The notes beneath the pieces were generated by a model. The model searched no databases, had not been told where the DNA came from, and was given only the letters and a program-made list of their open reading frames with translations. From the IMG/VR virus record IMGVR_UViG_3300006310_000001: a DNA stretch of 64,000 nucleotides; one strand, 5' to 3'. Positions 1,121 to 28,377 of the stretch are shown here, in pieces. The translations under genes and the position numbers were made by a program. Numbering within the stretch: the first letter of the stretch is position 1; each line of letters opens with the position of its first letter. The DNA is from a virus.

Positions 1121-1798
1121 CTAATTCCACAATTTCTTGACCCATTCTTGGTCTGAATCGTGTGGTAAAGGTCTTCCGTGAAATACTGCAACTTTCGCTT
1201 TTTCTTTCTTTTCAAACTTCCAACCTGACTTATGAAATCTAGGGTCTTTTCTACTATGCCATTTATAAGAATATGTCCATTCGTCTGGCATAACCTTTAA
1301 ATTCTTACTATTTTTAACTAATTTGGACATTGCGTTTTGGTCACCTTGCAATTTCATTAAATTAGATTTATCTTCTAAAAACTTATTCCATACTAATTTA
1401 GTTGCAACTTCATTATTGAATTTCATTATACTTGAATTATACTCTTTCGTTGCTAGGTTGAAATCGTTTATTACACCAAATGTCATATCATCACCAAATG
1501 TCGCTAATTCATTGATGTTATCTAAAATCACTACATCTAAATCCATATATAAACAAGGACCTTTTAATTCTGACTCTTCTCTAAATAACTGCATTTTATT
1601 CCACCAACCGTCATAAGTTGAATCTCTAAACTTTCTAAATTCTATGTCACCTTTTAATATCTTTTGAGGTTTTACGTGGTCTGAAAAACATATAAACTTA
1701 TGGGGTATGGTTAAATGTCTTTTAACCATATTGTATAGCACTTGTACATAATCTAGTGAATACTTTGTTCCATAATATACACAGCAAAAATTTATCAT
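1121..1798 (-). CDS. GT-A glycosyltransferase (GT8-like)
   Basis: CVYYGTKY...GWWNKMQLF...YMDLDVVI (DxD), GDQ and VFHG motifs. Confidence 0.75.
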   Translation of the reverse strand: MINFCCVYYGTKYSLDYVQVLYNMVKRHLTIPHKFICFSDHVKPQKILKGDIEFRKFRDSTYDGWWNKMQLFREESELKGPCLYMDLDVVILDNINELATFGDDMTFGVINDFNLATKEYNSSIMKFNNEVATKLVWNKFLEDKSNLMKLQGDQNAMSKLVKNSKNLKVMPDEWTYSYKWHSRKDPRFHKSGWKFEKKEKAKVAVFHGRPLPHDSDQEWVKKLWN

Positions 1799-18173: not shown

Positions 18174-19169
18174 CTAACATTTCTTATAATAGTTTAATTT
18201 TGTTAACGCTTCTAATTTGCTAAAGGTATTATTACTTATGATATCTCTCAACTCGCTTATTTTCATTCCATTCATTATCATTTCATTTACATCTTTAAGT
18301 TGTACGTCATTTGGCCAGACTACTACGTTATAATTTTTTTCAATTACAGCGTACATCCTTTTTATGATTTCTTTATTACGAGGTTCGTTATCAAATATAT
18401 ATGTAACTTGGTCACTTGACACTCTCAATGTTAAGTCAGCACCACCTGCTGCTAAACAATTATCTAAAAACAAACTATCAAGTGGACCTTCAACTATGTA
18501 AATATGTTTTTGAAAATTTACACGTTCAAGTCCATATACTTTTTGTTTTGTTTCATCAAGTTTAATAGTAATATATTTTGGTTGTTCTTTTCCAAATGCT
18601 CTGCCTTGGAATGCAAACAACGTACCAGTTACGTCAAAGAAAGGAATTATTAATCTAGGGTGTTCATAACGTTCTTTAAAAGTCCCTGGTTTCACTTTAT
18701 TAGCAAAATTGTGAAATTTGTCAACAAAATAAATTATCTCATAATATTGTGGAGGTATCAATCTCTTTTTTACGTAATCCTTTACAGGATGTCCGTCTTT
18801 TAATGTACTTACTTTAATACAAGAATCTAATAAATTTGTTTCTTTAAATTTTGTTGGTTTAAAGTCAAATTTCGGCTGGGGCGTGGATGGTGCCGATCCT
18901 TTGTATCTCTCTAATAAGTATTCTCCGTATTTTTTGGGATCCAAGAATTTAATGAAATTTGCTAAATTCTGACCCATACCACAATTGTGGCATTTGAAGA
19001 ACATATCATTTTTTACTCTATAAAGATATGCCCTTGCTTTTGTTTTACTCTTCTGCGAGTCTCCACAATGTGGACACCTAAAATTGAAAAGATAATCTGT
19101 CTTCTTTTTAAACTGGCTTAATGCTGAAGAAATGGCATTAATATACTTTAAATCTATATAACTTGACAT
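18174..19169 (-). CDS. 61: DNA primase (T4 gp61)
   Basis: FRCPHCGDS...FKCHNC zinc finger, VEGPLDS TOPRIM, FDNEPRN. Confidence 0.95.
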   Translation of the reverse strand: MSSYIDLKYINAISSALSQFKKKTDYLFNFRCPHCGDSQKSKTKARAYLYRVKNDMFFKCHNCGMGQNLANFIKFLDPKKYGEYLLERYKGSAPSTPQPKFDFKPTKFKETNLLDSCIKVSTLKDGHPVKDYVKKRLIPPQYYEIIYFVDKFHNFANKVKPGTFKERYEHPRLIIPFFDVTGTLFAFQGRAFGKEQPKYITIKLDETKQKVYGLERVNFQKHIYIVEGPLDSLFLDNCLAAGGADLTLRVSSDQVTYIFDNEPRNKEIIKRMYAVIEKNYNVVVWPNDVQLKDVNEMIMNGMKISELRDIISNNTFSKLEALTKLNYYKKC

Positions 19170-19805: not shown

Positions 19806-19936
19806 TATACGTTTCTCCATTGTGTTGGCAACCACCATTCGGTGTACCAATGTTTAAATTGTGCTGGATTTCTGCCCATAATAAAAATACACCAAAATCC
19901 TTTTATTAATTCCTTTATTGCTATTAACCTACTCAT
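19805..19936 (-). CDS. 43-aa Trp-rich microprotein (MSRLIAIKELIKGFWCIF...)
   Basis: Not in track; TAATG-coupled at both ends. Confidence 0.6.
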   Translation of the reverse strand: MSRLIAIKELIKGFWCIFIMGRNPAQFKHWYTEWWLPTQWRNV

Positions 19937-22056
19937 TAATCCGTTTGTATGATTGTAATATTTTCTTGGCTGGAACTGCTGCCAATATCAATGTGTTGTG
20001 CTTCTTTATCTTGTAAAATTTGAACGTCTGCCTCGTCAGCAGTTTCAATTTTTAAATAAGCACGGTGGTTGTCATTATATCTATTTATAATTGAGTAGCC
20101 GCTAACAGACGTATCAACATCAGCGTCATAAGTGTTGCTACCTGTTGTATATCTTCCTGTTAATGTTTCAGAAGTTTTTACATCACCTTCTGTTGTTGTA
20201 GTAGTTTGAGTAATATCTCCTGTGGTGTAATTTAATATTTCACCACTAGTTGTTGTTGTCGTTTCTGATTTTGAATTGTCAACCCATTCTGTTCCACAAG
20301 AAGCATTTGCTTTGTCCCAATAGTATCCCCAATTAACACAATCATTTTCATTATCTATATCTGCTAACCATAATTCTAATTCAGCGTCTATGTCATAATC
20401 ATCCTCATAACTATATTCATCTTCCAATGTTGTAGAATCATCTCCTGTATCATCATATGAACCTGTGTACCACCAACTAGATGTATTGTCATAAAATTTT
20501 TGCCAATCTGAATTGGTCCATTCAGAAACATATTTGTCTTTTAAACTTGCCATCTTCCAAGGTTTAGGTTGTCCAGAACACCACTCTGGTTTGTCCCAAG
20601 TACCACACCAACCATACCATTTTTTAAATAATTTTCTAGCTCCTTTTTCCCAACTATCATAATCTTTAAACAATGTCCAATCGTCTTCGTACCAAGCGTT
20701 TAAATAATCTATATAACTCTGGTTACACCAAGATGTATCCCAACCATTATAATCACAATAGTTTTCTATTGTTAACGTTGGTGGTCCACCTGCCGCTATG
20801 TAATCTGCATTATTATAATATTCATTTGATAAATCAAAATCTTCCCAAGTGTATCCAACAACTGTTGATGTTGCTTCTTCTTCAACTGTTTCAGTTACAT
20901 CTTCTTCCTTTACATCATAAGAAGTTAATCCATATTTTTCTAACGTATCATTATACTCATCATAATAAGCATCCCAATCAACTTTATCCCAATCAACCTC
21001 TTCCCAATTAATAGTATCCCAAGTACAATCTGAGCAACCTATTGCGTCAAAGTATGCTTGATCCATTTCAGCGTACATAGTTTTAGCTGTATCCCAATCC
21101 ATTTTCTGTTCACCAGTAGCATCCCATACTGATATTTGATTATCTTCATCAATGTATCCCCAATCTTTTAAATCTTCTTCCCATTCATCATAATAAGAAG
21201 TATCAACTTCCGATTCTTTTCCTGCTTGGTCTACTGCTGATTCTTCATAACTATAACTATCATCACTTCCAGAAGTACCTAAATCGGAAGTAGTGTCATA
21301 TGTATCATATGTTTCTGTAATTGAACTCTCTTCAGAAATAATAGCTTCTTCCATTTTTTGTAATTGTTCATTGTTTTCTGCTCTATCAAATTGTTGGTCG
21401 TGTTTCTTTTTTATATCATCATCAATACTATCAATATCAAACAAATTCTTTTTCTGATTGTTATCCAATGCTGATGGAGTTTTAATCATAACATCTGAAC
21501 CAACTACAGTTACAGAAGTGTATACGTTAGTTAATGTTTGAGAACCTGCGTCATTGGTTACGGTTACTTGTCCTACATCACCAGAACTATCTGGAAGTAA
21601 TGTAATTGTTGTTTGACCTGAAGTATCTACTGTACCTGAAAAGGCAGTACCTTGCATAGTTATAGTTGCTGTTGGTGTAACTAATTCAACCTCACCACCT
21701 AATTTTTTTACATCTCCTGATTCATATGTAAATGTACCAACATTAATTGATATGTTCATTGCAATTTCAATTGGTATAACAGACGTATCAAAAGCAAATT
21801 CATCAATGATTAATTCTGTATTCGGACCCATTGTAAATTTAGTATCATCTTTATAATGTAAAATCATTCCACCATCTTCTCCTGTTTGGAGAAAATCGTT
21901 CATTTCTAATAGGTAACCTTTAATTACTTCTTCGGTACGTCCATCTCTTTCGTTCCAAGTTTGACCCATTTTATCAAAAACAGAACCAATAGTAACTGCT
22001 AATGCTTGTGTAGTAAATAGTATCAGAAACGATACTATGAATAAAAGTTTTTTCAT
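19936..22056 (-). CDS. exported FecR-domain protein with long acidic Trp/Tyr-rich extension
   Basis: Signal peptide; LQTGEDG..FTMGPNTEL..VTPTATITMQGTAF FecR-type fold; C-terminal ITIIQTD. Confidence 0.8.
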   Translation of the reverse strand: MKKLLFIVSFLILFTTQALAVTIGSVFDKMGQTWNERDGRTEEVIKGYLLEMNDFLQTGEDGGMILHYKDDTKFTMGPNTELIIDEFAFDTSVIPIEIAMNISINVGTFTYESGDVKKLGGEVELVTPTATITMQGTAFSGTVDTSGQTTITLLPDSSGDVGQVTVTNDAGSQTLTNVYTSVTVVGSDVMIKTPSALDNNQKKNLFDIDSIDDDIKKKHDQQFDRAENNEQLQKMEEAIISEESSITETYDTYDTTSDLGTSGSDDSYSYEESAVDQAGKESEVDTSYYDEWEEDLKDWGYIDEDNQISVWDATGEQKMDWDTAKTMYAEMDQAYFDAIGCSDCTWDTINWEEVDWDKVDWDAYYDEYNDTLEKYGLTSYDVKEEDVTETVEEEATSTVVGYTWEDFDLSNEYYNNADYIAAGGPPTLTIENYCDYNGWDTSWCNQSYIDYLNAWYEDDWTLFKDYDSWEKGARKLFKKWYGWCGTWDKPEWCSGQPKPWKMASLKDKYVSEWTNSDWQKFYDNTSSWWYTGSYDDTGDDSTTLEDEYSYEDDYDIDAELELWLADIDNENDCVNWGYYWDKANASCGTEWVDNSKSETTTTTSGEILNYTTGDITQTTTTTEGDVKTSETLTGRYTTGSNTYDADVDTSVSGYSIINRYNDNHRAYLKIETADEADVQILQDKEAQHIDIGSSSSQENITIIQTD

Positions 22057-22424
22057 TTCTGAAACACCTCATCTAAATCATTATAAAACGATTGTTTATC
22101 TGCATACCCTATTATTCTTGTTAATTCTTTTCTACCATTCCATATTATAAATGTTGGTGTTCCTCTAATAGGTTTAATTCTTCCTTCAGCATATGCTTCT
22201 TTAAACCAGTTAGGTTGATTATATAAATTAATAATAACTAAAGGTAAATCTTCATACTCATAGTCAACTCCTACCTCTTGTAAAAAGTTTTGGCATATAC
22301 CACACATAGGATTGTGTGCCATTAATAATTCATTTGCTTTCGCTGATGATATGCCTAATATTAATAATACAGTAACACAAATTATTATTGCCCACTTTTC
22401 CCAAGTGTTGTGAAATAGTTTCAT
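22053..22424 (-). CDS. exported thioredoxin-fold protein (SoxS-like)
   Basis: Signal/TM segment, CGIC, GTPTF, RIIGY. Confidence 0.75.
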   Translation of the reverse strand: MKLFHNTWEKWAIIICVTVLLILGISSAKANELLMAHNPMCGICQNFLQEVGVDYEYEDLPLVIINLYNQPNWFKEAYAEGRIKPIRGTPTFIIWNGRKELTRIIGYADKQSFYNDLDEVFQK

Positions 22425-22552
22425 TTAAATTTCTTCTTCTTTTCTTTTCTTTTCCATTTTTCTGGATAGTAATTGTGGATTAGTGTACAGATTATGCCAC
22501 CTGATAAACATATTGTACCAAATATTAAAAAGAAAGCGACAAACCCTTTCAT
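22421..22552 (-). CDS. 43-aa TM microprotein with basic tail
   Basis: Not in track; MKGFVAFFLIFGTICLSGGIICTLI...KRKRKKKKFK fills the gap exactly. Confidence 0.6.
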   Translation of the reverse strand: MKGFVAFFLIFGTICLSGGIICTLIHNYYPEKWKRKEKKKKFK

Positions 22553-23641
22553 TTAACACCCGCCAGTTATCGTATTAGTATAATCTGCTGTTTGATTGTT
22601 TCTGTTATATGAATAGGTACAACTATCATTACCGTCTTGATTCACGTGTAAAGTATAGTCGTATATTGAATCACCTGATACATAAAGATAAGCATAGTTG
22701 TCATCATTAAGTTGTTTAAGGTTAACAATTGCGTCATCTGTATAGATATAAACTTTTGCTACATTATCATCACCATTTGCATAGTAAGTAAATGTATTAT
22801 CGTTTCCAACAGTAACCGTTTTCATCCAATTGTCATCACCTCTTTGTATCATTCTTACGTGACTACCTGTGCAACAGGAGTGAACATCTAAAATATTTGA
22901 ATCACCTATGATATCGTGAACTTGGTAGTTACTTTCGCCCCAAATTCCTGTGTGTACTCTATTAGAATTTCCTATAATGTAAAAATCTATTGTTGCACCT
23001 TCACTACCTGAATCATCTGCAAAGATTCCGTGAGAAGCAACATCTGGACCTATCATTATATTTGCCTTGTCAGAACCAACCATACCTTTTGATTCTGCTC
23101 TGTTACTATAAAATTCTACATCATTTGAATCTCCATTAATCAATACATATAAGAAGTGTGAATCACCGTGAGAATTCATCCAAAAATCATTTGAGTCTCC
23201 TACAATATCTAAATCAAGGTGTGTATCCTGTACATCATCACTTGTATTTGTATCTATCTCTACTATGTTTGATGAACCTGTAATATCAATGTCATAATAG
23301 TGTCCATCTGCGCCTACATCATCTAAATCTAATCTTAATACATTGGAACTACCTACAGCATAATAATCAAAGGTCATATTAGAACCCATAAATGCTCTAT
23401 GGTTGCTATCTTTAGCAACATTATTGTCACCTATTTGTTTAATTATAAGAGTAAGATTTGGTCCGTTGACTAAAAAAGGATATGATGTGCTTAACCCAAC
23501 CATATTACCAGTACCATCTTGTTTGATGTAGATGGAACCATCATCATCTTGGTTAACTTGCCAAATATATACTGAATTTCCTGCTAGACAATTAATCGTT
23601 GTCGCTAGAAGAATCACTAGAGCCATTATCATTTTCTTCAT
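22553..23641 (-). CDS. exported curlin-like repeat protein (CsgA/CsgB-like)
   Basis: Signal peptide plus about a dozen GxxN-type repeats (QDGTGN, QIGDNN, VGSSN, TGSSN, VGDSN, NGDSN, IGNSN, IGDSN, RGDDN, NGDDN); next to csgG. Confidence 0.7.
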   Translation of the reverse strand: MKKMIMALVILLATTINCLAGNSVYIWQVNQDDDGSIYIKQDGTGNMVGLSTSYPFLVNGPNLTLIIKQIGDNNVAKDSNHRAFMGSNMTFDYYAVGSSNVLRLDLDDVGADGHYYDIDITGSSNIVEIDTNTSDDVQDTHLDLDIVGDSNDFWMNSHGDSHFLYVLINGDSNDVEFYSNRAESKGMVGSDKANIMIGPDVASHGIFADDSGSEGATIDFYIIGNSNRVHTGIWGESNYQVHDIIGDSNILDVHSCCTGSHVRMIQRGDDNWMKTVTVGNDNTFTYYANGDDNVAKVYIYTDDAIVNLKQLNDDNYAYLYVSGDSIYDYTLHVNQDGNDSCTYSYNRNNQTADYTNTITGGC

Positions 23642-24590
23642 TTGTGTTCTCCTTTTCTTTTAACTCGTCTTGAATCTTTTTCTTACGTTCTTCTTTTTGG
23701 TTTTCTTTTTCTAATAGATAATCTTCGTATGTTTTCTCTACATTAGGTTCTTGTTGTTCTATAACTACTTCAACCTTTTCTTCTGTAATGACTTCTGCGT
23801 CTGACTCTTCAACAATAACTGGCTTTTCAATTTCCCATAAGCCTTTTTCGTCACCTTCTTTTATCAATTCTACTATACCTTTTTCTATTGCTTTTCTTAC
23901 TGCAAAGGTAACAGGTTCATTTCTTGCAACACCAACCTCTAACTCTAATAACAATGTATCAGCGTCAAAGTATTTGAATATATCTCCACCAGTTTCACCT
24001 GAAATTATAGTTTTCTCAACTACTATTGATATTACTACTTCACCAGTTTGTACATTAACTAATCTTAAAATAATAGTAACTACATCTTGTCGCCATTGTT
24101 TATGTGCTTGAATGCCTAAAATTCTTGCACCATAACCGCCTGTCTTTACATCACTATCATAACCTATAATTCCACCTGTAAGATATGCACCTGCAAACAA
24201 TAGTGGAGGTAAAGATTGTGCTTTATCACCATCAACTTGTTGTCTTGTAGAACGTATTAATTTTCGTTCTTGTAATAGACTTGGCAAACTTGCTCGTTCT
24301 ACTACTCTAAACCATTTGCCATCGCCTGCGTCTTGTAATGCTTTAATTAATATTTGATATGCACCTTGAGTTACTGCCGTACTCATTGTTGCATAATTGC
24401 CACCTGGTTTCTTTTGACCAGTTAAATCCATAAAATCATACACAGCAATTACAACAGGTTCACCGACAGGTGATTCTATTGTAGTTAAATTTTTAACTGC
24501 TGGTATTTGTTTTCTAACATCAAAGTCTGGCTTACCTGCACAACTAACTAACAATAATGTTAACAAAAATATTGCTATACTTCTAAACAT
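23592..24590 (-). CDS. csgG: curli secretion channel CsgG-family lipoprotein
   Basis: Lipobox LVSC, AVYDFMDLTGQKKP, STAVTQG, WFRVVER..L..ER..IR, GGIIGYD. Confidence 0.9.
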   Translation of the reverse strand: MFRSIAIFLLTLLLVSCAGKPDFDVRKQIPAVKNLTTIESPVGEPVVIAVYDFMDLTGQKKPGGNYATMSTAVTQGAYQILIKALQDAGDGKWFRVVERASLPSLLQERKLIRSTRQQVDGDKAQSLPPLLFAGAYLTGGIIGYDSDVKTGGYGARILGIQAHKQWRQDVVTIILRLVNVQTGEVVISIVVEKTIISGETGGDIFKYFDADTLLLELEVGVARNEPVTFAVRKAIEKGIVELIKEGDEKGLWEIEKPVIVEESDAEVITEEKVEVVIEQQEPNVEKTYEDYLLEKENQKEERKKKIQDELKEKENTNEENDNGSSDSSSDND

Positions 24591-25042
24591 TAATCTTCCT
24601 TCGGCATAGTAAATGTCGTTACTGTTCCATCCGTTTCAGTAACAGTCACTACTACGTTACCTGTTCCTGAAGGTGTTGTCCACTCAACAAGTTCTCCACC
24701 AATTGGTGATGTAAATGAACCTGTATCTTGTTGTAGACCATCAGCACCAAATATATTTGTTGTAATTTGTTTTGCTAGTGCTGTATAGAACCTTGATTCT
24801 AAATTTGCTTTGAATTTTGCTACTGCTGTATTTTTAGCATCCTCTTTGACTTTATCAGCCGCTGCTTTTTCAGCTGCTTTTATAGCGTCTTTACGAGTCT
24901 TCTCTATATTTTCTACAGTTAAATAGTGTGATGATTTTCCTTCCCCACTAAAGGATGGACTATCAAATTTAAATGTTAATTCACTTGCATTTGCTATAGA
25001 ATATAATGATAATACTGCTAATATTGTAATGATTATTCGCAT
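24590..25042 (-). CDS. csgF: curli assembly protein CsgF-like
   Basis: Signal peptide then ELTFKFDSPSFSG; directly upstream of csgG. Confidence 0.8.
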   Translation of the reverse strand: MRIIITILAVLSLYSIANASELTFKFDSPSFSGEGKSSHYLTVENIEKTRKDAIKAAEKAAADKVKEDAKNTAVAKFKANLESRFYTALAKQITTNIFGADGLQQDTGSFTSPIGGELVEWTTPSGTGNVVVTVTETDGTVTTFTMPKED

Positions 25043-25065
25043 TTTCCTTCTCTCTTTGATGTATA

Positions 25066-25073
25066 TATTTATA
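25066..25073 (-). promoter_or_regulatory. T4-type late promoter TATAAATA
   Basis: Exact consensus 24 bp upstream of csgF. Confidence 0.75.
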
Positions 25074-25097
25074 AGATATCTGTACTAAATAGTACGT

Positions 25098-26753
25098 ATG
25101 ATTAAAATATTGACGAAAACGTGGGCAGTATATTTGACGTTGATTATATTACTTGGAATATATATATCAAATCCTATCTTGCTACAGTCAGCAAAACTAA
25201 ACACCTTTGATTTCTACCAAACATTTGGTAAGAATTATGAATCCAAGAGTTTAGTACTAGTAGACATATCAGACAAAGCATTAGAAAAGAATGGGCAATG
25301 GCCGTGGAAGAGAGATTTACTTGGTCGTGTCATAATCAATGCATATAAAAATGGTGCCGCTCTTGTAGTTCTGCAAGTAGTCTTCCCACATAAAGATAGA
25401 TTAGGTGGTGATGAAATGTTTTTGAAAATGATTTCAAAATATCCAATCATACTTACTGAAACCGATACTGTAAAAAATCTTATTAGTATCTCACGTAAAG
25501 CAATAGCAATAGGTAATGTATCTGCACCAGTTGATATAGATGGCACTATAAGAAAACTACCTCTTGATAAATCCATACCTGAAGTTATCTTAAAAGTTAT
25601 TAATGCAAAAACTTTAGCAGAAGATACTATTTGGATTGATTTCAGACATAATATTCCTAGAATAGATTACACCGATAAAGATTGGTCATCTGTAAAAGGT
25701 AAAATAGTTTTCATAGGTACAACATTCCAAGGTTCAACATTTGTTACTACTCCTAATGGATTAAAAAACACACACGAAATTATGGCAATCAGTACAGAAA
25801 CTTTATTGTCAGGTAATTTTATTAGTAGACCTTATTGGTTACCATATAGTGAATTTGCTTTTATACTATTAGGTGCTCTATTCTTTCTCATAGTTATACC
25901 TAGATGTGGTGTAATGTGGTCTGCGATATGGTTTGGTGGATACTTATTTGATTTAACACTTGCAAGTTCTTATCTATGGACGCAACACTTAATCATAACT
26001 GATTGGTTCAGTCCACTTGTAATAGGGTCTGTAATATGGGGTCAGTTAACATACAATAACTATTCAAAAGAAAATAAATTAAGACTACAAATTAAGAAAC
26101 AATTTGAACACTATCTATCTCCAGATATGGTTAAGAAACTACAAAAGAATCCATCTCTATTAAAACTTGGTGGTGAAAGAAAAGTAATGACGTTTTTGTT
26201 TTCAGACATACGTGGCTTTACTCCTATATCGGAATCTATGAAAGGTAATCCAGAAAAACTTACCAAGTATGTTAATAAGTTCTTGACTGTAATGACTGAT
26301 ATAATATTAAAAAATGGTGGTACTATTGATAAGTATATGGGTGATTGTATAATGGCATTTTGGAACGCACCCCTAGACAATCCAAATCATCAAAGACTAG
26401 CAGTACTATCTGCATCCCAAATGAAAAAAACAGTTGAAGAAATGAATAAGAGTGGAGAGTTTGACCCACCTTTAAAGATTGGTATAGGTATCAATACTGG
26501 TGAGTGTCTTGTAGGTAATATGGGGTCTGAACAACGTTTTGATTATTCTGTTATTGGTGACGCTGTTAATTTGGCAAGTAGATTGGAAGGTAAGAGTAAA
26601 GATTTTGATACTACAATAGTAATATCTCAACATACTGCTGAAGGTATTGACTTTGTTCCATTGGCAAGACCAGATGGATTTAAATTCTATAAACTAGGTA
26701 TCTCTACTGTAAAAGGTAAAAAAGAAAAGGTTAATTGTTTTTCTATTAAATAA
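25098..26753 (+). CDS. CHASE2-domain membrane adenylate cyclase (class III)
   Basis: N-terminal TM, GQWPWKR CHASE2, 3 TM helices, FSDIRGFT, DKYMGD, FDYSVIGDAVNLASRLE. Confidence 0.92.
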   Translation: MIKILTKTWAVYLTLIILLGIYISNPILLQSAKLNTFDFYQTFGKNYESKSLVLVDISDKALEKNGQWPWKRDLLGRVIINAYKNGAALVVLQVVFPHKDRLGGDEMFLKMISKYPIILTETDTVKNLISISRKAIAIGNVSAPVDIDGTIRKLPLDKSIPEVILKVINAKTLAEDTIWIDFRHNIPRIDYTDKDWSSVKGKIVFIGTTFQGSTFVTTPNGLKNTHEIMAISTETLLSGNFISRPYWLPYSEFAFILLGALFFLIVIPRCGVMWSAIWFGGYLFDLTLASSYLWTQHLIITDWFSPLVIGSVIWGQLTYNNYSKENKLRLQIKKQFEHYLSPDMVKKLQKNPSLLKLGGERKVMTFLFSDIRGFTPISESMKGNPEKLTKYVNKFLTVMTDIILKNGGTIDKYMGDCIMAFWNAPLDNPNHQRLAVLSASQMKKTVEEMNKSGEFDPPLKIGIGINTGECLVGNMGSEQRFDYSVIGDAVNLASRLEGKSKDFDTTIVISQHTAEGIDFVPLARPDGFKFYKLGISTVKGKKEKVNCFSIK

Positions 26754-26996: not shown

Positions 26997-27181
26997 TACT
27001 GTACTATTTCATCTCCTGTTTTTACATTGGGTCTTGGTTTCTCACAAACAGAACAATCACATTTACTACAAATAATAGTTACTGTCTTTTGATTTCGTAA
27101 TCCATCTGGACTAGAAGTAATATACTCCATTAACTTTTCAGGACAATGAGCTTCCCTACCACAATTTTTACATTTTTCCAT
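26996..27181 (-). CDS. small Cys-rich putative zinc-binding protein
   Basis: CKNCGREAHC...CSKCDCSVC. Confidence 0.7.
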   Translation of the reverse strand: MEKCKNCGREAHCPEKLMEYITSSPDGLRNQKTVTIICSKCDCSVCEKPRPNVKTGDEIVQ

Positions 27182-28377
27182 TACTTTTTAAACTTTGTTG
27201 CCTCTTCTGAACCGCCTGTTGCTGTTCCTTTTGTATAAGAATGAGCACCCATACCTGCAAGGTCTCCATCTTTAACAATTAAATATTGATTTCTTATTTC
27301 TGTTCCATCAAATAAACACTCTAGTATTTCTCTTACACCAGCAGCATATCTTGTTTGTGCTGATAGTGAAGTACCTGAAGTGTGTGGTGTCATACCGTGG
27401 TTAGGCATTGTTCTCCATACGTGGTCATTAGGTGCTGGTTGTGGAAACCATACATCACCTGCATAACCGCTTAATTGTCCTGACTCTAATCCTCTAGCAA
27501 CAGCATCCTTATCACAAATTTTTCCTCTTGCTGTATTAATTATGTACGCACCTTTTTTGCACTTACTAATTAAATCATCATTAAACATATGTTCAGTTTC
27601 AGGATGTAAAGGACAACTTATATTAATCACATCACATACTGCAACTAACTCCTCAACTGAATTGTGATATATTAAATTTAATTCTTTCTCTTTATCTTCT
27701 GGCAATCTATGCTTATCAAAGTAATGTAGGTGTACATCAAATGGTTTCATCTTTCTTAACATATCATAACCTATACGTCCAGCAGCAATTGTACCTATAT
27801 GCATACCTTCTACGTCATAAGAACGTTTAACTGCGTCAGCTATATGCCAACCACCTTCGTTAACTATTCTATGTTGATTATGATAATCTCTAACTAGTGC
27901 TAGTATCATCATAACAATATGTTCTGCAACACTTCTACTATTACAATAAGTTACTTCAACTACATCAACTTTATGATCCATAGCCGCTTGTAAATCTACG
28001 TGGTCTGAACCAATACCTGCTGTAATTGCCATCTTTAAATTTGGAGCACTCTCTATTCTTTTTCTATTTAAATAGTACGGCCAGAATGGTTGTGATATGA
28101 CTACATCTGCGTCAACTAGTTCTTTATCTGCAACGCAACCATCTGCGTCTTTATCAGAAGTAACTACTAACGTATGTCCTGCGTCTTCTAAAAACTTTCT
28201 TAATCCTAATTCACCTGACACACATCCTAATAAATCACCTGGTCTAAAATCAATACCCTTTGGTGTAGGTAGTGTCATTCCATCTGGATACTTTTCTAAT
28301 TTTGGTAAGTCTTTGACTGGATATGATTTTGGCATTCCATCTTTAGGGTCGTCATATAATATACATAATATTTTCAT
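27181..28377 (-). CDS. fdh: NAD-dependent formate dehydrogenase (metal-independent)
   Basis: LGCVSGELGLRKFLE, SQPFWP, TAGIGSDHVD, AAGRIG, YFDKHR, NTARG, VWFPQPAP, PHTSG, GAHSY. Confidence 0.95.
   Translation of the reverse strand: MKILCILYDDPKDGMPKSYPVKDLPKLEKYPDGMTLPTPKGIDFRPGDLLGCVSGELGLRKFLEDAGHTLVVTSDKDADGCVADKELVDADVVISQPFWPYYLNRKRIESAPNLKMAITAGIGSDHVDLQAAMDHKVDVVEVTYCNSRSVAEHIVMMILALVRDYHNQHRIVNEGGWHIADAVKRSYDVEGMHIGTIAAGRIGYDMLRKMKPFDVHLHYFDKHRLPEDKEKELNLIYHNSVEELVAVCDVINISCPLHPETEHMFNDDLISKCKKGAYIINTARGKICDKDAVARGLESGQLSGYAGDVWFPQPAPNDHVWRTMPNHGMTPHTSGTSLSAQTRYAAGVREILECLFDGTEIRNQYLIVKDGDLAGMGAHSYTKGTATGGSEEATKFKK

Follow-up and report, generated by a model that had tools for sequence, protein, structure and literature searches.

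The 64,000-nucleotide stretch of viral DNA analyzed here (IMG/VR record IMGVR_UViG_3300006310_000001; the whole stretch is referred to as the window) carries, between positions 19936 and 26753, genes for a curli-type secretion channel, a curlin-like protein, a secreted FecR-domain protein, and a membrane adenylate cyclase with a CHASE2 sensor domain. This block is a rearranged member of a known, functionally unexplained pelagiphage module. We give roughly even credence to the reading that it is the pelagimyophage version of the known phage region with type VIII secretion system (T8SS), FecR, and cyclase genes, and that it constitutes a late-expressed envelope module with a FecR-CHASE2 sensor pair. 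The FecR-domain protein and the CHASE2 cyclase would then be a two-gene sensor pair taken from Alphaproteobacteria, in which the FecR domain acts in the periplasm as an accessory partner of CHASE2. Whether this partner switches the otherwise auto-inhibited cyclase would depend on the condition of the envelope or the secretion apparatus, and the infected cell would make cyclic AMP (cAMP) late in infection. Every part of the block carries an export signal or a transmembrane segment.

The cyclase gene (25098-26753, plus strand; 551 amino acids [aa]) is the sole large plus-strand open reading frame (ORF) in the window, where the minus strand has 60 ORFs of ≥120 aa and the plus strand has 4. It encodes a class III adenylate cyclase with Pfam matches to CHASE2 (PF05226, 1.3e-26; 94.2 bits against a curated cutoff of 26.3, residues 15 to 262) and to Guanylate_cyc (5.4e-22). 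The predicted topology consists of an N-terminal transmembrane segment, a periplasmic CHASE2 domain, a hydrophobic block at residues ∼247 to 316, and a cytoplasmic catalytic domain; hydrophobic segments were called at residues 1 to 32 and 247 to 280, the latter extending to ∼316 by eye. Over its full length the protein is 33% identical to gp019 of the cultured phage HTVC008M. Six catalytic residues are invariant in 39 viral homologues and align to Pseudomonas aeruginosa CyaB (3r5g; match to the catalytic domain, 2e-32): the metal-binding pair D370 (FSD) and D416 (GD), the substrate-specifying residues K412 (DKY) and D482 (FDY), which select ATP rather than GTP, and the transition-state residues N491 and R495. 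The CHASE2 motifs GQWPWxR and DR..D are likewise invariant in these homologues. To judge from its residues, the inner-membrane cyclase has everything needed for cAMP synthesis. An earlier note on this DNA, made from the sequence alone, had described an intact membrane cyclase lying head-to-head with csgF across 55 bp; both the catalytic residues and the gene placement bear this out, with the gap between the two ATG codons at 25043-25097.

Across viral relatives the cyclase and the other genes of the block travel together. Scans of IMG/VR viral contigs yielded at least 600 matching stretches for the cyclase and likewise at least 600 for csgG, and csgFG, FecR, and the cyclase remain linked in two cultured phages and far more than 100 viral contigs. 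Searched from the cyclase side, viral loci have csgF, csgG, the curlin-like gene, and the FecR gene beside the cyclase wherever the flank suffices. Searched from the csgG side, an FecR ORF follows csgG in 66 of 66 loci, and a CHASE2 cyclase is present in all 25 csgG loci having 8 kb downstream and 6.5 kb upstream, so that the co-occurrence on which the earlier note staked its idea is conserved. Exactly one CHASE2 protein was found in each phage genome checked. One exception to the linkage is a 1,299-aa FecR-type ORF (L051:2519-6418) 3.6 kb upstream of a viral cyclase, with no csgF or csgG within 10 kb.

HTVC008M and Melnitz show the usual order, csgF-csgG-curlin-FecR-(second curlin)-cyclase on one strand; the cyclase of the window's clade has shifted, inverted, to the other end of the operon. 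At least four arrangements of the cyclase with the block occur: downstream, adjacent and divergent (as in the window), distant and divergent (locus L186, 3.7 kb upstream of the csg operon), and upstream and codirectional (locus L214). That several rearrangements have not parted the cyclase from the block speaks for a functional tie between them. Upstream of csgF lies the cyclase in the window and only ORFs of ∼90 to 105 aa in L037, L050, and L077. Podophages are reported to have a histidine kinase at this position; none turned up in the examined loci, and the two short ORFs before csgF in L037 had no Pfam match.

Alternatively, the cyclase might be an independent auxiliary gene that floods the cell with cAMP and thereby reprograms metabolism or jams a cyclic-nucleotide defense, and that sits near csg only as a late, membrane-targeted accessory gene in a variable region. 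In its favor are that the region is known as a hypervariable island (PMC7029224), that the position and strand of the cyclase differ between relatives, and that the catalytic core is intact. A free-running cyclase, however, needs no conserved periplasmic CHASE2 domain with motifs invariant in 39 homologues; the cyclase is present in every csgG locus with enough flank; and the pairing of FecR with CHASE2 exists in bacteria without any phage context. We regard the auxiliary-gene explanation as improbable.

The bacterial pairs are the evidence for the proposed origin of the sensor. The nearest cellular relatives of the viral cyclases (29 to 43% identity) are mostly alphaproteobacterial, and in 41 of 80 alphaproteobacterial-type loci an FecR-domain ORF lies within 10 kb of the CHASE2 cyclase, often immediately upstream. 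In Campylobacterota, the CHASE2 cyclase clusters with an FecR-domain outer-membrane protein (PMC9239204), and in Sinorhizobium meliloti an FecR-domain gene (smc02177) adjoins cyaD1, the product of which is constitutively active without CHASE2 (PMC5498481). The likeness to the phage pair is that a CHASE2 class III cyclase adjoins a secreted PF04773 protein with a variable C-terminal part. Seven bacterial FecR partners that were scanned are true PF04773 proteins, and their C-terminal regions vary (cadherin/Ig with an RTX-like end, TPR, or none), whereas the phage protein has an acidic region and a C-terminal beta module; in Campylobacterota the clusters also include genes for a phosphodiesterase and a TPR protein. 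Unlike the phage block, the bacterial pairs have no csgG, csgF, or curlin genes. Among the 80 cellular cyclase loci, csg genes were seen in one, the phage-like L084 (RGCF01000015.1), a 46.6-kb contig in a metagenome-assembled genome (MAG) labeled "Bacteroidetes bacterium" that carries csgF-csgG-curlin-FecR-cyclase in phage order and is probably a phage contig binned into the MAG. Since the bacterial loci, L084 excepted, are without csg genes, it appears that phages joined a bacterial FecR and CHASE2-cyclase pair to the curli secretion set.

In Bradyrhizobium centrosematis (L102:4769-9847) and similar loci, giant proteins of 1,200 to 3,000 aa are encoded directly upstream of CHASE2 cyclases. 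Their FecR domain at the N terminus, their cadherin/Ig repeats, and their weak RTX-like end make them look like adhesins; a LapA-like reading of the giant Bradyrhizobium protein is uncorroborated, since no type I secretion system (T1SS) genes lie within 10 kb of it.

By analogy, a precedent for outer-membrane-to-cytoplasm signaling through CHASE2 is the NsrA-CyaK/CyaD1/D2-Clr pathway of S. meliloti, in which an outer-membrane protein, NsrA, is needed for the cAMP response of inner-membrane CHASE2 cyclases to a signal from outside (PMC7529298, PMC13001267). By its description, NsrA is a beta-barrel receptor, whereas the phage has a CsgG channel, and in S. meliloti the cAMP reader, Clr, is known. 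The earlier note had stated both that CHASE2 sensors lie beside FecR-domain genes in bacteria and that Sinorhizobium CHASE2 cyclases answer to envelope-level signals; the former agrees with our 41 loci and with the published pairs (PMC9239204, PMC5498481), the latter with the dependence on NsrA (PMC7529298).

The FecR partner in the window is a secreted protein of 706 aa (19936-22056, minus strand). We assign it to the FecR-domain proteins because its N-terminal 240 residues are homologous to HTVC008M gp017 (8e-21, 29% identity), which matches PF04773 at 1.2e-8, because 31 of the 39 members in the family alignment have a PF04773 match, and because its model has the fold of the PupR cell-surface signaling domain (6ovk/6ovm; Z 15.7, root mean square deviation [rmsd] 2.5 over 138 aa), as two structural searches found independently. 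A signal peptide is followed by the FecR/PupR-like N-domain (residues ∼21 to 212), an acidic middle with 8 Cys (213 to 650), and a C-terminal beta module (651 to 706). In the family, this conserved module spans ∼60 aa, and the acidic middle measures ∼117 aa with a net charge of approximately −26 in short forms and, in the window's clade, ∼460 aa with approximately −98 and eight Cys.

The signal peptide looks cleavable and of the Sec type, ending in ALA-VT, and residues 1 to 28 are the sole hydrophobic segment; for these reasons we take the protein to be secreted and to share a domain with FecR, not to be an FecR-type anti-sigma factor. With FecR/PupR anti-sigma regulators it has in common the fold of the periplasmic domain. 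It differs from them in having a cleavable signal peptide instead of a transmembrane segment and a cytoplasmic anti-sigma domain, and the phage block encodes neither an extracytoplasmic function (ECF) sigma factor nor a TonB-dependent transducer. The 706-aa protein showed no STN-type subdomain. A fold search gave nothing above Z 4.5 for residues 281 to 480 and 599 to 704, parts that were barely probed as only the whole model was searched, and the acidic insert had no usable match in the Protein Atlas. We also tried the C terminus (…NITIIQTD) as a curlin half-repeat and dropped it after a profile-profile comparison (3% probability, E 0.013).

A second structural likeness allows a bolder idea. 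Residues 20 to 118 of the model superpose on 5ix9 (Z 11.1, rmsd 2.3, 74 of 76 residues), the N-terminal "retention module" in adhesins of the MpIBP/LapA class; this module is thought to be a periplasmic plug while the remainder is threaded through an outer-membrane pore (bioRxiv 10.1101/198937, PMC5550230). The 706-aa model is flexible after the N-domain (predicted local distance difference test, pLDDT, <50 at residues 218 to 280), and the CsgGF channel's lumen has been predicted to be positively charged in Melnitz (PMC9004378). From the retention-module fold, the acidic flexible region, and the positive lumen comes the idea that the protein is a LapA-like tether threaded through the pore; the block as a whole would then be a true outside-in sensor on a type VIII pore. 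The folded N-domain (retention-module/FecR fold) would stay in the periplasm as a plug and touch CHASE2, the acidic middle (net charge ∼−26 or −98) would run through the CsgG/CsgF channel, and the conserved beta module would lie outside, on or beside the curlin fiber; cAMP synthesis would then be switched by tension on the tether, by its occupancy, or by its loss. LapA-type adhesins, though, use a T1SS with a TolC-like pore, whereas the 706-aa protein has a Sec signal and no RTX C terminus or repeats, and the only pore of the phage operon is CsgG. The 5ix9 match may be no more than a beta-sandwich subfold shared by FecR domains, and we hold the tether to be unlikely.

The minus-strand genes of the block, among them those for the secretion channel, run in the order csgF, csgG, curlin-like ORF, thioredoxin-like ORF, and the 706-aa ORF. 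CsgF (24590-25042; 150 aa with a signal peptide) matches PF10614 at 1.5e-13 and phrog_35372 at 2e-34. Its mature N terminus is LTFKFDSPSFSGEG, in which LTFKFDSPSFSG resembles what we take to be the channel-binding motif of the Escherichia coli protein, TFQFRNPNFGG. CsgG (23592-24590; 332 aa) is an outer-membrane lipoprotein channel (PF03783, 5.6e-49) with the lipobox LVSC, 48% identical to CsgG of HTVC008M; an N-Y pair lies at the position that presumably corresponds to the N55-F56 constriction of E. coli. The assignments confirm the curli pore of the earlier note, and CsgG and CsgF are predicted from them to build a curli-type outer-membrane channel. In the window's clade CsgG ends in an E/K-rich, low-complexity tail of ∼80 residues (residues 255 to 332; 23592-23826, minus strand), which is not in the shorter CsgG of HTVC008M-type phages.

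The likely cargo of this channel, and presumed T8SS substrate, is the Sec-exported curlin-like protein (22553-23641, minus strand; 362 aa, signal peptide, 5 Cys), which is similar to the HTVC008M "CsgB" gp016 (1e-9). It matches Curlin_rpt weakly (0.014), and 9 of 22 family members have a match to this profile, up to 2e-5. It was modeled as an all-beta solenoid (pLDDT 76), for which the top structural match among 48,161 solved chains was Pontibacter CsgA (8c50; Z 23.7, 22% identity, but with an rmsd of 9.1 over 270 aa); generic beta-helix proteins trailed at Z ≤17. No second curlin ORF is present in the block in the window. A Pfam scan of the block found no ORF matching the CsgE gate, the CsgC chaperone, or the CsgD regulator; CsgE is also missing from phage T8SS according to PMC9599517.

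The thioredoxin-like ORF (22053-22424, minus strand; 123 aa) has a CGIC motif, an N-terminal anchor or signal, and a PF13098 match of 27.5 bits (cutoff, 27). It is full length only in the window's operon, and L002 keeps a 30-aa trace (90%) at the same position. Residues 1 to 31 of its product, which form the signal or anchor, share 65% identity with the beginning of a 145-aa ORF upstream of csgF in L021 (3350-3787, plus strand). Elsewhere only this signal peptide recurs, and the rest of the L021 ORF is unrelated; the likeness looks like the exchange of a signal-peptide module.

With a channel that looks canonical and a curlin-like protein that models as a CsgA-like solenoid, the block could be a fiber module, in which CsgG and CsgF export the curlin-like protein to form a surface amyloid that aggregates cells ("sibling capture") or shields the infected cell from other phages, with FecR and the cyclase as accessory regulators or unrelated to sensing. 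This hypothesis has been stated before (PMC7029224, PMC9599517), and the link of FecR to csgG in all 66 loci agrees with it. Against it, no clumping occurred in Melnitz-infected cultures (PMC9004378), and with a T4-type late promoter the operon needs no transcriptional control by cAMP. It also leaves unexplained why the block kept a sensor cyclase with a periplasmic domain through several rearrangements. On balance we find it rather unlikely that the block is such a fiber module.

The timing of expression can be judged from promoter motifs. The T4-type late promoter motif TATAAATA (25066-25073, minus strand) ends 23 nucleotides (nt) before the csgF ATG, is followed by a good ribosome-binding site, and is invariant in the alignment of loci with the divergent arrangement; (T/C)ATAAATA lies ∼30 nt upstream of csgF in 18 of 18 loci of the myophage clade. 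In the window, TATAAATA occurs at 9 minus-strand sites and at no plus-strand site, and ATAAATA at 15 minus-strand sites and 1 plus-strand site, a total below the chance expectation of 17.6. Other than in late promoters, the motif appears to be avoided. Late expression of the csg operon is well supported by these conserved, strand-exclusive motifs upstream of csgF. For the cyclase it is plausible: xxTAAATA faces the gene 6 to 25 nt upstream in 13 of 13 loci with the divergent arrangement, and in the window takes the form of the late-promoter-like ACTAAATA (25084-25091, plus strand), 6 nt before the ATG. The earlier note assumed that cAMP is made late in infection; late expression has good support from the sequence for the operon and weaker support for the cyclase.

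A late promoter would also suit a gated outer-membrane channel that helps to time lysis, as has been hypothesized for Melnitz (PMC9004378). CsgG and CsgF would then act like a pinholin or secretin, with the cyclase and FecR setting the opening, in analogy to T4 lysis inhibition as proposed in the earlier note, and the lack of CsgE, a periplasmic gate, among the ORFs of the block would be in keeping with this. Yet a CsgG channel lies in the outer membrane and cannot depolarize the inner membrane, the operon retains a cargo-like curlin protein, the conserved block includes no holin, endolysin, or spanin gene, and nothing of any kind points to timing. We consider a role in lysis timing highly improbable. 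A report on superinfection and interference with cyclic-nucleotide immunity, which the earlier note also put forward, would be further candidate purposes.

For the FecR-CHASE2 sensor pair to act through cAMP, a reader of the signal is needed. A makeshift profile built from 20 bacterial cyclic-nucleotide-binding (cNMP-binding) domains was used to search the related viral loci and the window. It matched no ORF in the window and a single one in 2.3 Mb of related viral loci, the 228-aa ORF L165:510-1196 (minus strand; PF00027, 7.9e-18), which lies head-to-head with csgF (1196-1645, plus strand) in the position held by the cyclase in the window. At least one relative thus has a putative cyclic-nucleotide reader of its own within the block. 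Because a reader is not encoded in the related phage genomes searched, the one used by the phage in the window is presumably a host protein; the literature on cAMP in SAR11 gave nothing useful.

Several observations weigh against the sensor pair. Apart from the ORF in L165, no cNMP-binding domain was found in the 2.3 Mb of viral loci, and likewise none in HTVC008M, none in the relative G002 (171 kb, estimated 100% complete), and none in three incomplete large relatives (G001, G003, and G004). The 706-aa ORF itself gave no match to Pfam FecR even at E ≤10, so that the label "FecR protein" used in the earlier note holds by way of gp017, the 31 relatives, and the PupR fold, and not by a domain match of its own. 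FecR and CHASE2 are a putative physical pair, and the enzyme activity of the cyclase is predicted from its residues. ACTAAATA departs from the late-promoter consensus and is so near the ATG that the cyclase mRNA would be nearly leaderless. Finally, FecR always accompanies phage T8SS genes and the cyclase is only frequent (PMC9599517), and for this reason FecR may serve the secretion system and not the cyclase.

The surroundings of the block are those of a phage genome. T4-type primase (18174-19169) and ribonucleotide reductase genes flank it on one side and helicase and DNA polymerase genes on the other, and the window is AT-rich throughout, with a uniform GC content of 29 to 35%. Together with the presence of the same block in the cultured phages HTVC008M and Melnitz, this led us to reject an assembly artifact or host-phage chimera, which the earlier note had named as a danger to its proposal; nothing was found in favor of such an origin, and we give it practically no credence. 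Just past the cyclase lies a D-2-hydroxyacid/formate dehydrogenase-like gene (27181-28377, minus strand; 2-Hacid_dh_C, 1.6e-48), 93% identical in L003.

The module as such has been described. The csgFG cluster of pelagimyophages has been known since 2020 (PMC7029224); 2022 brought the lysis-timing idea for Melnitz (PMC9004378) and the description by Wittmers et al. of the full set with curlin proteins, FecR, and adenylate cyclase in myo- and podo-type pelagiphages, along with its expression in metatranscriptomes (PMC9599517). The GenBank record of Melnitz annotates every gene of the module. The claim of the earlier note that this is an undescribed system therefore fails, and because the gene block is already published, the case for a discovery is weak. 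The region annotated in HTVC008M and Melnitz has the same gene families, occurs in the same phage group, and lies, as here, between replication genes of T4-like marine phages. Compared with it, the window has an inverted cyclase at the head of the operon, a CHASE2 domain shorter by ∼60 aa, an FecR protein twice as long and carrying a ∼350-aa acidic insert with 8 Cys, a CsgG with a charged tail, and an inserted thioredoxin-like gene, and it has neither a second curlin gene nor the histidine kinase upstream of csgF (PMC9599517). CHASE2 is not mentioned in that study. New here are the recognition of the sensor as CHASE2, the tracing of the FecR-cyclase pair to a two-gene unit of bacteria, the evidence from promoter motifs, the matches in fold, and the cNMP-binding gene of L165.

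The host bacteria of these SAR11-type phages are among the most abundant in the sea and, to our knowledge, have no curli genes themselves. The module is very common among these marine phages, with at least 600 matching stretches per scan, and the phage would equip the cell it infects with both a new envelope structure and a sensor that works through a second messenger. Knowing the signal of the cyclase and the reader of its cAMP would explain a widespread phage function, and knowledge of the signal would in addition identify a ligand or partner of CHASE2, for which few signals are known.

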